Shown here: one piece after another, positions 30,979 through 38,026 of the stretch
Numbering within the stretch: position 1 is the first letter of the stretch
Layout: each line of letters opens with the position of its first letter
Assembly (NCBI GenBank): GCA_044507735.1
Contig: JBIQJB010000007.1
Location: forward strand, 18,873-82,872
Reading direction: 5' to 3'
Source of the DNA: Nitrosopumilales archaeon
GTDB taxonomy: Archaea; Thermoproteota; Nitrososphaeria; Nitrososphaerales; Nitrososphaeraceae
Length of the DNA: 64,000 nt
Made by a program: the position numbers and the translations under genes
The notes under the pieces: generated by a model
Seen by the model: the letters and a program-made list of their open reading frames with translations, nothing else
Database searches by the model: none
What the model was told of the DNA's origin: nothing

Positions 30979-32148
30979 TTGTCCAGCCAGGAGCAAATAG
31001 AAGATACGCCCAGTGATCCTCTGGTAGCAGCAGAAGTTAATGATGACAAGTTTTGGTTTTCACATTGGACGCACGAATATGAGGTCAAAGAGACTGGACC
31101 GATGAAGAAGGAATTCTTCTTGCTGAAAAATAAACCGCAGATAAAGATGGATTGGGACAATTGTACAATAAATATTGCGACAGCACTTGGCGATGGCAAG
31201 ATAAGGCTTGTTGTACGAAGCAAGACTGATAGAAATAGCGACTACATGGGTGACAAGCCTGTACAGATCCGGTTTATGCTAGGCATTGACGTTTCTCCAG
31301 ATTCAATTTCAGAAGTACGCGCAGAACCATACAAAATAGCTCGGGATTCCAAACGAAAAGATCTGAATTCCCTGAAAGAGGAAGAAGAGCGCGAGCGATG
31401 GGTGTTTAATTTGGGAAAAGAGGCAGAGGTGTGGCAGTGGGCCAACAATAATCAAGACATGAGATCAAGCAAGGTATTTGCGCTTCGAGAAAGGATAAGA
31501 AAGTTTCTAGACCTGCCAGAGGAACCCAGTGGGGGCAAGATATTCCGAGTAAAGGTAGAACAGCTTGACAAGGTAATACCAGTCATATATCAGCCAGCAG
31601 TAGATTCACTCGATAACTTTTTGCGCGACGTGCACTGCCATATAAAGAATGAACAAGACAGCGATAATGTTGTTGATGTTGAAGTAACTCTAGTGTTCAA
31701 TAATGAATATCTGCGCAGATTTTGGATACTTGATCACAGCTACAAATGGTTCAGAAAAATAAAGTATGGAAGAATGTTGGATATCGAGACTTTTCACATT
31801 CATTTCGTCAAAGACAAGCTGAACGAAAATTATTTCTTGTTTGAAGGGATCTATAGTGGATCCCACGACTTGCAGCAGGACGCTACTCACTTTGATGTGG
31901 GGAAACGTGTAGAACATGAAATAGCATACTATTTGGCGGATCAATTCCATCCGATAGTGTTTGTCAATACATCCAACCATGCAATGTCGGAGCACGATAA
32001 TAACCATGGGCTATGGAAATGGGAGTATATTCCATGGATAAAAAAGGCTCCCATAAAGCTTGGCAACAAGAGCCGAAAGCAGATAGATGCAGAGTATCTG
32101 ACAATATTTGATAGGTTTATCAGACTGTTAAGCAAGCTTGGAAATTGA
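30979..32148 (+). CDS. Hypothetical protein (389 aa)
   Basis: Long open frame, soluble and aromatic-rich; C-terminal VFVNTSNHAM; no family recognised. Confidence 0.7.
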   Translation: MSSQEQIEDTPSDPLVAAEVNDDKFWFSHWTHEYEVKETGPMKKEFFLLKNKPQIKMDWDNCTINIATALGDGKIRLVVRSKTDRNSDYMGDKPVQIRFMLGIDVSPDSISEVRAEPYKIARDSKRKDLNSLKEEEERERWVFNLGKEAEVWQWANNNQDMRSSKVFALRERIRKFLDLPEEPSGGKIFRVKVEQLDKVIPVIYQPAVDSLDNFLRDVHCHIKNEQDSDNVVDVEVTLVFNNEYLRRFWILDHSYKWFRKIKYGRMLDIETFHIHFVKDKLNENYFLFEGIYSGSHDLQQDATHFDVGKRVEHEIAYYLADQFHPIVFVNTSNHAMSEHDNNHGLWKWEYIPWIKKAPIKLGNKSRKQIDAEYLTIFDRFIRLLSKLGN

Positions 32149-34202: not shown

Positions 34203-35801
34203 ATGTCGTTCATTTTGCATCGCACAGAGAAGAATAAGGCGGCCAACAGCAAATCATCAGATGCTGCCAAAACCCATATCCAAAATAGTTTGGTCAATAA
34301 TGGTCCTCAGGAATCTGTTGTTAATCTACAACGATTCAATCGCAGCCAAGAATCACTAATAACAAGACTCCGCTCAAATGAAAGCTTGTTTGATTTCTCC
34401 ACAATTCGTATTCAACCAAAGCTAAAAGTGAGCCAGCCAGGAGATGCCTATGAACAAGAGGCTGACAGAATTGCTGATGCGGTAATCGCAACTCCCGTTA
34501 CCAATCCTGCTCCCGTCACAGTCACACATACTCAGCCCAAGTTGCATGCGAGGCGCAGTTGTAGTACTTGCAAGGGCGCCAGAAAAGATAAGGATGAAAA
34601 ATTTCAGACATCAAATCTTGAGATAGGAAGAAAAGCTACCAACAACAACTCCTCTAGCCTCAAGACATCTGATCAAATAACCAATGAGATCAACACTGCT
34701 ATCAAGTCTGACAGTGGTAAAGCGCTTGATCCTTCAACAAGACATTTCATGGAAACTCAATTTGGTCATGATTTTTCAACCGTTCGGATACATACTGATC
34801 AGAAAGCAGTTCAATCAGCCCAACTCCTTAACGCACATGCCTATACTGTAGGAACTGATATCGTATTTGACGATGCTCAATATCAACCTGATACGACTGA
34901 AGGAAAAAGACTGCTTGCTCATGAACTGACGCATGTAGTGCAGCAAAGCTCGGCACCGCTGCAAGAATCGCAGCCAGGAGCATCATACGGATCTGCTGCC
35001 GCAGCCTCGCTTTATGTACAGCGCGACCTTGCTCGCCCGCCCACGGGGGCACCTGATGCACTGGTTGAACTGACACCGGAGCAGATTGAAGAAGCAATAG
35101 CGTTTAATGAGTCTCAATTTACAGACCCATACTCTATTCTTCGGATCCGCGACGTGCTGGGAATCGAACCAATAGGAATAGTAGATGAAGCTCTAATTAG
35201 AGCTGTAGTTCAGTGGCAGTCAGAGTTTCATCTACAACAAGACGGTAAAATCGGCTTGGCAACATTTCGGTCAATAATAAGGGAGCTGCAGGCAGAAGGT
35301 CAGCGCGATGATGTTATCGTACTCATAATCGACTTTTTCCACATGCCCACCCGCGGACTGGTTTCCATCCGTTTTGACTCTACAGTTGCGGCTAATGCTT
35401 CTACAAGCGGACCAATTCCAGGCAATTCCACAGTACGTGTTGGACCTGCCGCCTTTGCACAGGGGTTCGCCGGCCTGGTACATACCATTAGACACGAACT
35501 AGAACACGTGCAGCAGCGCCGAGCTGGAATGTTGAACCAAAACTTGCGCGAGTTCCTTGCAGAGTCTGTTGAGATACTTAGCGTTGGAATGCCTCGGGAA
35601 AATGTGGCCGGCTTTATGGATGATGCAGGTCGCGCTCTGCATTTCTGGAATCTGCTTTCAGTTGCAGAACAGAGGGCAAACTGGGCGCAATTTGAGCGTG
35701 TAAGAGATGAGGTTCGTCGCAGATTCAATGGCGCACCTGCAGCAGAGCAGGCAACGCATCAAGCTCTAATGGATTCATACAATGCAGTAGTTCAACCATG
35801 A
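34203..35801 (+). CDS. DUF4157 (eCIS core) protein with putative peptidoglycan-binding domain and C-terminal HExxH metallopeptidase
   Basis: IQPKLKVSQPGDAYEQEAD; GKALD..R.FME..FGHDFSTVRIHTD..AHAYTVG.DIVF..LLAHELTHVVQQ; VQR; AVVQWQSEFHLQQDGKIGLAT; HELEH..EFLAE. Confidence 0.88.
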   Translation: MSFILHRTEKNKAANSKSSDAAKTHIQNSLVNNGPQESVVNLQRFNRSQESLITRLRSNESLFDFSTIRIQPKLKVSQPGDAYEQEADRIADAVIATPVTNPAPVTVTHTQPKLHARRSCSTCKGARKDKDEKFQTSNLEIGRKATNNNSSSLKTSDQITNEINTAIKSDSGKALDPSTRHFMETQFGHDFSTVRIHTDQKAVQSAQLLNAHAYTVGTDIVFDDAQYQPDTTEGKRLLAHELTHVVQQSSAPLQESQPGASYGSAAAASLYVQRDLARPPTGAPDALVELTPEQIEEAIAFNESQFTDPYSILRIRDVLGIEPIGIVDEALIRAVVQWQSEFHLQQDGKIGLATFRSIIRELQAEGQRDDVIVLIIDFFHMPTRGLVSIRFDSTVAANASTSGPIPGNSTVRVGPAAFAQGFAGLVHTIRHELEHVQQRRAGMLNQNLREFLAESVEILSVGMPRENVAGFMDDAGRALHFWNLLSVAEQRANWAQFERVRDEVRRRFNGAPAAEQATHQALMDSYNAVVQP

Positions 35802-35851
35802 TGATGATAATGGGCATTATTATTCGCTAGAATGGTGGGAACAAACAAATC

Positions 35852-36301
35852 ATGACATCGGGTCCTCTAAGACTGGAAATAAGCGTACAAAAACAAGTTA
35901 TTCACTTTGGAGCACCTTGCCAAGTCCTAGTCAAACTTTCAAATGAAGGGCTGAAATCCCAAATGGTCAATAAACGCCTGGCTATAGGCTATAGAGACAA
36001 CATTTCTCGCGAAATATTTGCAGATCTAATAAATCTCGATACGGGCGAGCCTGCCAGAATAGATGCAGTTGATTACAACAGAAATTTTTCCCCCGCTTCT
36101 GATTATGTTTACTTGCAACCGGGTGAAACTATATCGACATTATTTGACCTTTTCGAGTGGTATCCTCCAGTATATGATGGGACTTACAGATTAGTTGTAT
36201 ACTATCAAGCAGACGAACCGATGGCCACAGCGGCTCCACCAGATGTAGTTTCAGGAGTAATTGAGAGCAATCAAATTGTCTTGACCATCACTAAGCAGTA
36301 A
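35852..36301 (+). CDS. Ig-like cytoplasmic protein; candidate immunity protein or peptidase inhibitor
   Basis: V.V.LSN.G..DYVYLQPGET....DL..WY....GTYRLVV.Y..SN; no signal peptide; 50 nt downstream of the toxin-like gene. Confidence 0.7.
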   Translation: MTSGPLRLEISVQKQVIHFGAPCQVLVKLSNEGLKSQMVNKRLAIGYRDNISREIFADLINLDTGEPARIDAVDYNRNFSPASDYVYLQPGETISTLFDLFEWYPPVYDGTYRLVVYYQADEPMATAAPPDVVSGVIESNQIVLTITKQ

Positions 36302-36499: not shown

Positions 36500-38026
36500 G
36501 TGGCATTGCACGCATTGGCAAAAAGTGTGAATAAGGAAAAAATGGGCAATGCGTATTGGTCAAAAGAACCAATGTATCCCAGCTTGTCTCGGTCTGCCAA
36601 TCCTACGAGACATTCTCAGAATTCTACCCATTATTATTACCAAAAATCATCGTCATCTATCAGTGACGGGGAAAAGGCCATTCATAGCAGTACATCTTCA
36701 TCTTCATCATCATTTGATTTTTCAAAAATTGGAATCCAACCAAAGTTAAGAATCAGCCAGTCAGATGATGTCTATGAAAAAGAAGCCGATGAAATTGCTG
36801 GCCAAATAGTAGGAAGTGGCGCAGACTCTGCTTACTATCCTAGTGTAGCCGCGGTTGGAGCAAGAAACCTTCAGCAATCACCATCAAGTGACATGGATGA
36901 TGGAAATCTACATGAGGATCTCTCTGATCATAACGCTAATAGGGTAAAGAGCGTACTCAACTCAGGAGGACAACCACTTGATTCATCGACGCGCTTGTTG
37001 ATGGAATCGCGATTTGGCTACGACTTTGGTCAAATAAGGATACATACGGGAAGTGACGCCTCGGCTTCTGCAGAGTCGGTAGGAGCCTTGGCGTATACTG
37101 CGGGACAGGATATTGTTTTTCGTGAAGGAATGTACTCGCCACTGACAGACGCAGGTCAAAGGTTGATTGCACATGAACTGGTGCACGCCATACAGCAGGA
37201 AAAAGCCAGCACAAAGGCCGTGACGACGATGACGGCAGCAGGTAATAATAGTCTTCTGCTGCAGCGCCAAGAAGCAAAAGAAGAAAGCCAAGGTAAGAAA
37301 AAAGAGGATGATAATAATACAGGCGAAGTCATAGCAGAAGGATTAAAGACTGTGGCAGAACAGGCGGTGGATAACAATCCCAAAGTCAAAAAAGAGATAA
37401 TAGAACCGTTGGAAAAGGCTGCGAAGAAAAAGGTGGAGAGCATGTCGACAGGAGAAAAGGCAGCGGTTGTGAGTTTTGGTGTCGCAACAGTTGGTCTTGC
37501 AGGCGGTGCGCTATTATCTGATCCAAAGGGGCGCGAGCTTTTAGAGGGGATAAATCTGGGCGCTCCACTTGCACTCATTCCATACATGCCCTTGACAGGT
37601 TTTAGCTATAAACTGCCAAGCGGTGATACGGGAGAAAAAAGTCAGTTTAGGTTTGAAACGACTTTTTCCGGTAATGACTATCTAAAGTTACTTACCGAGC
37701 GCAAGGATTTTCCCAAAATGTCACTGGGAGTCAAGATGCAGTGGGGATATGACCCCAATACAGAACAACTAAGAGTGCTTGGAGCTCAGGCTCAACTTGG
37801 TCTTATGCCTGGAGTGAGCATAGCTGGCGGCACTTATCCTAACATACTTTCGATGCCTCAGACTTTTATAACTCCAGAAGGGCAGATGGTAACGAGTAAA
37901 AAGCGGATCCCAGATGTGGGCGGAGAGTCCATTCCCGATACGCGTGTAATGCTGAGCATAGACTTGCTCAAACTGGACAAGCGGATAATAGGCAAGAGAC
38001 TTTACAATATTTTGCACTCCTTTTAG
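36500..38026 (+). CDS. Second DUF4157 (eCIS core) protein with an unrelated C-terminal payload
   Basis: IQPKLRISQSDDVYEKEAD; GGQPLD..R..MESRFGYDFGQIRIHTG..ALAYTAGQDIVF..LIAHELVHAIQQ; LQRQ; start may be the ATG at 36542. Confidence 0.88.
   Translation: MALHALAKSVNKEKMGNAYWSKEPMYPSLSRSANPTRHSQNSTHYYYQKSSSSISDGEKAIHSSTSSSSSSFDFSKIGIQPKLRISQSDDVYEKEADEIAGQIVGSGADSAYYPSVAAVGARNLQQSPSSDMDDGNLHEDLSDHNANRVKSVLNSGGQPLDSSTRLLMESRFGYDFGQIRIHTGSDASASAESVGALAYTAGQDIVFREGMYSPLTDAGQRLIAHELVHAIQQEKASTKAVTTMTAAGNNSLLLQRQEAKEESQGKKKEDDNNTGEVIAEGLKTVAEQAVDNNPKVKKEIIEPLEKAAKKKVESMSTGEKAAVVSFGVATVGLAGGALLSDPKGRELLEGINLGAPLALIPYMPLTGFSYKLPSGDTGEKSQFRFETTFSGNDYLKLLTERKDFPKMSLGVKMQWGYDPNTEQLRVLGAQAQLGLMPGVSIAGGTYPNILSMPQTFITPEGQMVTSKKRIPDVGGESIPDTRVMLSIDLLKLDKRIIGKRLYNILHSF

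Follow-up and report, generated by a model that had tools for sequence, protein, structure and literature searches.

Does an ammonia-oxidising archaeon carry a weapon directed at the walls of bacteria? The question is raised by a gene in the window analysed here, a stretch of 64,000 nucleotides from a Nitrosopumilales archaeon (assembly GCA_044507735.1, contig JBIQJB010000007.1, positions 18,873 to 82,872 of the forward strand), in which an initial annotation made from the letters alone had seen a candidate antibacterial effector composed of a DUF4157 core, a peptidoglycan-binding domain and a zinc peptidase. We find that this gene (34203–35801) and its downstream partner (35852–36301) have, judged by their sequences, the make-up of a toxin–inhibitor cassette that was acquired from bacteria and belongs to a contractile injection system (CIS). 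Our best reading gives the cassette an antibacterial, wall-directed role; it is plausible, and we lean towards it. The architecture first proposed is supported and the interpretation placed on it is supported in part. Beyond it, we observed a conserved partner protein (w149), a distant kinship between the zincin and DUF4157, and a wall-binding domain within the conserved front part of related proteins in congeneric archaea. The features on which the argument rests are as follows.

34203..35801, + strand: open reading frame (ORF) of the putative toxin, 532 aa, in four parts (leader, DUF4157/eCIS_core, PG_binding_1-type domain, HExxH…E zincin)
34203..34724, + strand: N-terminal leader, aa 1–174, low in hydrophobic residues, with motif QPKLKVSQPGDAYEQEADRIADAV at 34413–34484
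34725..34955, + strand: DUF4157/eCIS_core domain, aa 175–251 (PF13699, E = 3.4e-35, 120.5 bits; Pfam cut-off 22)
35013..35030, + strand: YVQRDL junction between front part and rear module; congeners read IQRDLAI
35076..35306, + strand: PG_binding_1-type helical domain, approximately aa 292–368 (Pfam match aa 323–357; invariant Q339 and G348)
35328..35798, + strand: C-terminal zincin domain, aa 376–532 (HELEH at 35493–35507, that is H431, E432 and H435; E457 at 35571–35573)
35852..36301, + strand: w149, all-beta partner of 149 aa, a separately encoded homologue of the AsaP1 propeptide; probable active-site inhibitor or immunity protein of the zincin

Domains of the toxin

The ORF and the motifs quoted for it are real: besides YVQRDL, we located the PG_binding_1-signature motif EALIRAVVQWQSEFHLQQDGKIGLAT at 35187–35264, HTIRHELEHVQQ at 35481–35516 and REFLAE at 35547–35564; the motif within HTIRHELEHVQQ that had been written HQLEH is HELEH. 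The DUF4157 core, which was clearly confirmed by its PF13699 score, holds an HExxH of its own, HELTH, inside LLAHELTHVVQQ (aa 237–248, 34911–34946). DUF4157 is described as a conserved core domain of extracellular contractile injection systems (eCIS), placed N-terminal to toxin domains, and eCIS were reported from one archaeal phylum (PMC8213781). The leader in front of the core is of low complexity, disorder-promoting residues making up 75% of its first 165 aa. Its motif QPKLKVSQPGDAYEQEADRIADAV recurs in the other DUF4157 proteins of the genome, including a 508-aa neighbour, as well as in congeners and bacterial relatives, and we infer that the leader serves as a loading sequence for an injection system. 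Loading in the system AlgoCIS depends on a disordered N-terminal domain and not on DUF4157 (10.64898/2026.05.27.728243). The claim that the protein has no signal peptide held in a hydropathy scan, which is cruder than a dedicated predictor of signal peptides: the highest 15-residue Kyte–Doolittle mean within the first 70 aa was 0.27, and the N-terminus is free of a hydrophobic stretch.

NCBIfam holds no family for the toxin, its 149-aa partner or the 508-aa neighbour, and phmmer found nothing at E ≤ 1 for the rear module among PDB sequences. A protein atlas returned unnamed bacterial clusters only, with Peptidase_M91, DUF6782, Tox-MPTase4 and DUF6647 clusters below 0.9 as mere leads. A promoter and terminator scan of the locus was uninformative, its models being of bacterial signals.

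We then examined the rear module (aa 270–532). Of 4419 candidates searched with it, 69 proteins matched at E ≤ 0.001, and alignment A1 was built from the window's module and 58 homologues (59 rows), omitting the self-hit P0002, the near-duplicate actinobacterial rows P0035, P0037–39 and P0041–42, P0050 (54% coverage) and the weak rows P0068–70. PG_binding_1 (PF01471) has a cut-off of 23 bits, which the whole protein (20.8 bits) and the rear part alone (22.1 bits) narrowly miss. When the 2.33-Mb genome was searched in six frames, the match reached 23.7 bits and no second one appeared; the match on the toxin is partial (profile positions 22–56 of 57). Among the rows of A1, PF01471 was matched in 46 of 59 (best E = 5.2e-23), eCIS_core in 28 and PG_binding_3 in 14.

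The AlphaFold2 model of the rear module computed from A1 had a mean pLDDT of 96.0 and a pTM of 0.91. Foldseek returned no match at E ≤ 0.001 for the two-domain model against the PDB, and exhaustive VIA alignments were used instead. Model residues 29–99 aligned with the wall-binding domains of a Streptomyces zinc DD-peptidase (1lbu; Z 6.5, root-mean-square deviation (rmsd) 2.3, 64 residues, 22% identity), an L,D-transpeptidase, SleB and a phage endolysin; the entries matched include 8da2 (Z 6.4), 6tci (Z 6.3), 5nm7 (Z 6.2), 9h68 (Z 6.2) and 3bkh (Z 5.9). Each of these alignments spans the entire small domain, and the Z values are modest, as expected at about 65 residues. Because the homologues match PF01471 and the fold alignments agree, we uphold the borderline call: the helical domain is predicted to have the three-helix wall-binding fold. 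As a domain of PG_binding_1 type, the proposed peptidoglycan-binding domain is supported by its relatives and its modelled fold, the score on the protein itself being borderline. The same fold is also the prodomain of matrix metalloproteases, and proMMP-9 is among the Foldseek rows for the two-domain model.

In the C-terminal part, H431, E432, H435 and E457 are invariant in all 59 sequences, E457 lying 22 residues past H435. The REFLAE segment singled out earlier keeps E450 in at least 90% of the sequences, with E454 not flagged, but the invariant acidic residue, E457, lies outside it. No Pfam or NCBIfam family matched this part beyond a weak eCIS_core hit, and Aspzincin M35 (PF14521) was not matched by the whole protein or its C-terminal part at E values up to 10. 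Fold comparison by VIA placed model residues 94–195 on the minimal zincin SPRTN (6mdx; Z 7.4, rmsd 2.8, 88 residues), with IrrE (3dte, Z 5.8) and selecase (4qhi) also matched; a second VIA search agreed on the wall-binding and SPRTN matches. No zincin match reaches Z 8, and the matches include an HExxH oxygenase domain that is not a protease (8s5f, Z 7.1); for this reason we speak of a putative peptidase.

The weak match to Pfam eCIS_core (16–17 bits), together with an hhalign comparison against 29 DUF4157 cores (probability 86%, E = 4.9e-6, 59 columns, covering the HExxH helix and the strands that precede it), leads us to read the domain as a distant DUF4157 relative with an added helical subdomain bearing E457. 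The domain originally proposed as a zinc peptidase has an invariant HExxH and glutamate; it matches no known peptidoglycan-hydrolase family and appears to be remote kin of DUF4157. This kinship suggests that the DUF4157 core may itself be a protease.

The partner protein and its bacterial family

A scan of one genome per species, from which the own genome was possibly left out, gave 37 loci encoding the rear module, all bacterial by record title (Desulfobacteraceae, Bacteroidota, Balneolota, Chloroflexota, Actinomycetota, Myxococcota, Gammaproteobacteria, Acidobacteriota and Dormibacterota). A homologue of w149 adjoins the payload directly downstream in 33 of these 37; of the four without it, L038 ends about 200 nt past the payload, and in L057, L059 and L060 the payload itself is matched weakly or over a short length. 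Among 28 loci analysed further, 27 have a spacing of −4 to 133 nt between payload and partner, and in 10 of the 28, all Actinomycetota, the start of the w149 homologue overlaps the payload stop codon. The archaeal relatives L065 and L066 have the homologue as well. Rear module and w149 thus occur together in seven or more phyla of bacteria. They make up a previously undescribed family of two genes, which would combine a wall-binding zincin with a separate, aspzincin-propeptide-like inhibitor.

The w149 family alignment (A2, 30 rows) has ten invariant residues, and the modelled protein is an all-beta sandwich (pLDDT 92.8). Its top fold match was the AsaP1 proenzyme (2x3a; Z 11.8, rmsd 2.8, 118 residues, chain residues 23–155), followed by the Bacillus subtilis intracellular proteinase inhibitor (3isy; Z 9.5, 114 of 117 residues). 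The latter is level with generic beta-sandwiches (Vibrio cholerae RbmA, Z 9.4; Spo0M, Z 8.9), only AsaP1 entries being clearly higher. Similarly, the A2 profile found AsaP1 by sequence (E = 1.5e-7, chain residues 35–149; runner-up E = 0.065). Taken together, sequence profile and model indicate that w149 is a homologue of AsaP1 region ~23–155, which we take to be the active-site-blocking inhibitory propeptide.

We modelled the rear module, zinc and w149 as a complex. The scores were 0.81, 0.81 and 0.84, the best of three controls reaching 0.09; in the calibration, this mark was attained by 58 of 80 complexes of solved structure and by 2 of 110 pairs that do not belong together. This job differed from its calibration in using custom alignments and a zinc ion, and its scores may partly reflect memory of the solved AsaP1 proenzyme. 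The runs agreed in at least 98% of contacts, with w149 at pLDDT 91 or higher. In the models, w149 loop 71–78 (D74) contacts H431, E432 and H435, and it also lines up along an edge strand of the zincin, aa 396–405, with which it pairs. These results suggest that w149 is probably an active-site inhibitor or immunity protein of the zincin.

By a crude hydropathy test (no predictor was used), the w149 homologue has an in-frame N-terminal extension of 26–52 aa with a hydrophobic core in 8 of the 28 loci, all from Bacteroidota, Balneolota or Gammaproteobacteria (L026, L028, L029, L033, L040, L045, L049 and L050); a Cys follows the core in four, which look lipoprotein-like, and the rest look signal-peptide-like. 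Exported inhibitors fit an enzyme acting in the periplasm. Cytoplasmic inhibitors, and an inhibitor kept in a wall-less archaeon, fit an enzyme dangerous in any cytoplasm, and both may hold.

Origin and retention in an ammonia oxidiser

The host proposal, an ammonia oxidiser, stood: the genome has two full-length archaeal amoA matches (C17:115287–115835, E = 3e-120; C9:29699–30247, E = 2e-115), and the window's ribB is 69–82% identical to its counterparts in 4 of 5 genomes of the genus. Ammonia-oxidising archaea lack peptidoglycan. The full rear module was found in none of 150 other genomes of the family (18 genera) and in 1 of 72 genomes of the genus, the own genome. In a quick, midpoint-rooted payload tree of 39 rows (omitting L056, which has stop codons, the irregular L047 and L048, and the weak L057–L060), the window's module forms a clade with P0003 (93% identical) and P0004 (84%) at SH-aLRT 100. 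This clade is sister to one with two Desulfobacteraceae rows (support 89, unstarred), and the rest of the tree is bacterial. Since the module is missing from the 150 family genomes, all 37 scanned loci are bacterial and the archaeal clade is nested among bacterial ones, a bacterial origin of the payload is supported, in keeping with the horizontal acquisition claimed for it.

The DUF4157 core tells another story, with less force. Its tree (44 rows, 100 columns, P0004 taken as archaeal by assumption) has no more than 2 starred branches. Of its 15 archaeal cores, 13 form a group at SH-aLRT 80, while a branch with support 70 can hold all 15 on one side; the bacterial proteins with the shared payload have cores that lie elsewhere in the tree. 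The separate phylogenies suggested for core and payload argue weakly for different histories.

A metagenome scan gave four loci, among them L065, a 93%-identical copy of the payload on a 78-kb contig. Its DNA matches the window at 34662–36294 only, from the DUF4157 core to the end of w149, at 81% nucleotide identity, and the genes on both sides of the cassette differ from the window's. An MscL-like neighbour there is 79.5% identical to that of our genome, which assigns L065 to a relative. Between window and L065 the leader is 35% identical and saturated, and the ratio of nonsynonymous to synonymous substitution rates (dN/dS) is 0.26 for the core, 0.043 for the linker and wall-binding domain, 0.078 for the zincin and 0.30 for w149 (Nei–Gojobori, a single sequence pair, dS 0.7–0.9). 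These ratios point to purifying selection on both genes in the two archaeal relatives, with strong constraint on the wall-binding domain and the zincin. A candidate description of the locus as an island between conserved flanks was not supported: a close match to the Band_7 neighbour occurs only in G101, tens of kilobases from ribB.

An injection system and its candidate cargo

The initial annotation had found no sheath, tube or baseplate gene in the window and had left the delivery route unknown. The first statement was confirmed by a scan of the neighbouring genes; the second no longer holds, since a genome-wide search found a CIS cluster on two other contigs. At the start of contig C53 lies a series of genes that share one strand and continue past the contig edge; they encode PAAR, gp25, two Baseplate_J proteins, an 867-aa protein, DUF6519, sheath, gp19 tube and T4_baseplate/DUF6760. 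The end of contig C42 holds CIS_tube, a 382-aa protein, a Phage_base_V spike and a third DUF4157 protein, with an Afp15-like AAA ATPase and Pvc16_N on the opposite strand. Phage_GPD, the VgrG-type spike, had no match in the genome; the Phage_base_V spike is present.

The order in an Acidobacteriota metagenome-assembled genome (locus L058) is sheath, tube, T4_baseplate, one ORF, Pvc16 and AAA. This order matches across the break and supports joining the start of C53 to the end of C42, and the genome appears to encode a complete-looking CIS split over the two contigs. Identity to L058 is 77% for the tube, 55% for the sheath, 47% for AAA, 32% for Pvc16 and 28% for T4_baseplate, a likeness that hints at transfer of the whole machine between domains.

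Two more DUF4157 genes of this genome are candidate cargo.

36500..38026, + strand (window): second DUF4157 gene, 508 aa, PF13699 E = 9.8e-29; neighbouring cargo candidate, outside the conserved two-gene unit
L007:7978–9771, + strand: third DUF4157 protein, 597 aa (C42_597), inside the CIS cluster, right after the Phage_base_V spike gene

C42_597 has an OmpA-type wall-binding domain (37.7 bits, cut-off 27.2) followed by a reprolysin-like zincin. The C-terminal half of the 508-aa protein matches no Pfam or NCBIfam family and has a Gly/Ala-rich hydrophobic stretch. A 108-aa ORF lies directly after the third DUF4157 gene. The ORF o230 (230 aa, L007:10156–10848, + strand) was set aside as a probable antisense shadow of the AAA ATPase gene; homologues of o230 in other loci overlap that gene likewise. 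In the window, a 389-aa ORF upstream of the toxin (30979–32148, + strand) has no Pfam family.

The system is patchily distributed among relatives. PF13699 was matched in 8 of 151 family genomes (7 above cut-off) and Pvc16_N in 5 of 151 (4 above cut-off); the sheath was matched in 12 of 72 genus genomes (11 of 71 without G163, flagged unpublished), the ten strongest matches to other genomes having 61–70% identity and a weak one, G195, 52% over 64 residues. The sheath matches of G101, G118, G135, G163 and G196 contain one or two in-frame stops, perhaps from decay or from a match crossing gene borders.

That the locus is an assembly or binning artefact, with a bacterial contig misplaced in an archaeal bin, is extremely improbable. 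The draft genome has 55 contigs and the relatives of the payload are bacterial, as such an error would have it; yet genes for GTP cyclohydrolase III and riboflavin synthesis lie on the toxin's contig too, including the ribB shared with 4 of 5 genus genomes. The G+C of 45% matches that of the flanks, and estimated contamination is 0.48%. Against an artefact also speak the 78-kb metagenome contig, with its 93%-identical payload and an MscL-like gene resembling that of our genome, and a single-contig genome of the genus with sheath, Pvc16_N and DUF4157 genes.

Congeners provided a further view of the cargo. Proteins of G188 (L061), G180 (L062) and G197 (L063), of 606, 485 and 516 aa, have DUF4157 cores at E = 1e-30 to 1e-32 and match only residues 3–99 of the rear module. 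PG_binding_1 scores 27.2, 20.8 and 16.8 bits on them, respectively, and all three genomes have a sheath gene. They share the leader, the core and the wall-binding domain with the window's toxin (P0001) at 37–42% identity up to its residues 366–385; their C-termini are unrelated, and one has another HExxH. Small, unrelated ORFs lie 3′ of the G188 (155 aa) and G180 (150 aa) toxins. A constant front part with exchangeable C-termini looks like a polymorphic-toxin layout in ammonia-oxidising archaea.

When 13 DUF4157 proteins of the family were scanned, 6 matched either PG_binding_1 or OmpA with E ≤ 0.01; the cut-off was passed by 2 of these, and a zinc peptidase follows the wall-binding match in 3 of the 6 (P0001, C42_597 and G044). 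The G044 protein, from another genus (L015, C73), combines DUF4157 and a weak OmpA match with Aspzincin_M35 at 36.7 bits (cut-off 30), the protease family whose propeptide w149 resembles.

The wall-binding matches also admit a peaceful use. In bacteria the protein could be an endolysin-like factor for release or maturation of CIS particles, the archaeal copy being a passenger carried along with the CIS genes. A wall-binding domain and a hydrolase without a signal peptide are the usual endolysin layout, endolysin wall-binding domains (5nm7, 3bkh) are among the fold matches, and DUF4157 has been proposed to take part in toxin processing or maturation (PMC8213781). However, dN/dS of 0.04–0.08 at dS 0.7–0.9 does not fit a useless passenger, leader plus DUF4157 is the layout of loaded cargo, and the modelled active-site inhibitor and polymorphic congener C-termini are marks of toxin and immunity. 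We consider this explanation quite improbable.

Possible target of the cassette and comparison with known systems

Under the wall-directed reading, the cassette would work as follows. In the cytoplasm of the producer, loop 71–78 of w149 would sit in the active-site cleft and keep the protease latent; the Afp15-like AAA+ ATPase would remove w149, unfold the cargo and load it by its leader. Once the cargo has been injected into the envelope of a bacterium, its helical domain may tether the enzyme at the peptidoglycan layer, where it could cleave stem peptides or wall-associated proteins.

Several observations weigh against this reading, besides the sub-threshold PG_binding_1 scores, the low zincin Z values with their non-protease match, the single pair behind dN/dS and the limits of the complex score. 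The toxin gene is on a different contig from the CIS cluster, and within 10 kb of the bacterial payload relatives structural CIS genes occur at 3 of 37 loci and the Afp15-like ATPase at 10 of 37. As matrix metalloprotease prodomains share the PG_binding_1 fold, the helical domain need not bind peptidoglycan. In 20 of the 28 loci and in the archaeal copy, w149 has no export-type extension, and a strictly wall-specific enzyme should need no cytoplasmic inhibitor; because w149 is kept under selection in a wall-less archaeon, the enzyme is argued not to be harmless outside peptidoglycan.

Some of these observations feed an alternative in which the CIS toxin–inhibitor pair has a target other than peptidoglycan, as a general or protein-specific protease against archaea, eukaryotes or any cell, the helical domain being structural or protein-binding. 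The selected inhibitor in a wall-less host, mostly without an export signal, fits it, as do the pTM of 0.91, which suggests a helical domain packed rigidly on the zincin, and the zincin's failure to match a known peptidoglycan-hydrolase family; haloarchaeal CIS, moreover, kill other archaea (PMC11566945). It is nonetheless rather unlikely, in our judgement, given the clear PF01471 matches in most relatives (46/59), the PG_binding_3 added in 14/59, a second cargo of the same genome (C42_597) with an OmpA-like wall-binding domain above the Pfam cut-off, the exported appearance of w149 homologues at 8 of 28 bacterial loci, and a wall-binding domain that is the most constrained part of the gene.

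We therefore return to the wall-directed role, and add a broader proposal that is possible and somewhat doubtful: soil ammonia-oxidising archaea may use CIS against bacteria, with DUF4157 cargo whose front parts end in a peptidoglycan-binding domain and carry swapped toxin heads, one of which, of bacterial derivation and with a propeptide-like inhibitor, would represent a new family of wall-tethered zinc proteases. If true, it would be the first mechanistic case of archaeal CIS attack on bacteria, in a key nitrifier group. Ammonia oxidisers control soil nitrification and live among bacteria, and the locus offers a concrete, clonable test case.

Our literature searches found no paper linking ammonia-oxidizing archaea with DUF4157 and, for contractile injection with Nitrososphaer or Thaumarchaeo, no description of such a system in the text available; PMC9230969 lists a sheath protein from a genome of Nitrososphaera. 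Archaeal secreted peptidoglycan hydrolases kill bacteria, genomes that encode a sheath domain show some enrichment of such hydrolases lacking a signal peptide, and the use of archaeal injection systems against bacteria is a stated open question (PMC12352652).

Among known systems, the toxin resembles the AlgoCIS cargo Cgo1/Cgo2 and the eCIS toxins of Geller et al. 2021 (PMC8213781; 10.64898/2026.05.27.728243) in its disordered leader, DUF4157 core, variable C-terminus and want of a signal peptide, and in a genome with a CIS and an Afp15-like ATPase. It differs from them in its ammonia-oxidising archaeal host, in the fusion of a zincin to a PG_binding_1-type domain and in a gene placed away from the CIS.

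With the CIS of Halogeometricum borinquense, called an archaeal T6SS (PMC11566945), it shares an archaeal machine, DUF4157 cargo and a small downstream gene; haloarchaeal DUF4157 proteins undergo sheath-dependent secretion, and some are toxic and neutralised by the downstream gene. That system acts on other haloarchaea, and the word peptidoglycan does not occur in the paper, whereas here the cargo is of a predicted wall-binding kind and the lineage, by amoA, of Nitrososphaeria type.

Woldo and Danwoldo (PMC12352652) are likewise archaeal proteins combining PG_binding_1 of bacterial origin with a hydrolase, with shuffling behind a conserved wall-binding part. They have Tat signal peptides and M23 or glucosaminidase domains, whereas the toxin lacks a signal peptide and combines a CIS leader with a zincin outside known families and with its own putative inhibitor. 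It falls outside that paper's definition of a modular peptidoglycan hydrolase, having no recognised catalytic family, and CIS delivery of such enzymes is put forward there as a suggestion.

Closest to the partner is AsaP1, an aspzincin M35 of Aeromonas salmonicida (2x3a/2x3b/2x3c), to whose region ~23–155 w149 appears homologous and whose mode of binding it shares when modelled in the zincin cleft. Here, in contrast, the "propeptide" is a separate gene, and the protease has HExxH with an invariant Glu and no Aspzincin_M35 match. The zincin itself shares with SPRTN (6mdx), IrrE (3dte) and selecase (4qhi) a three-stranded sheet, an HExxH helix and a helical subdomain; at about 10% identity and Z < 8, this is an arrangement held in common and not family membership.

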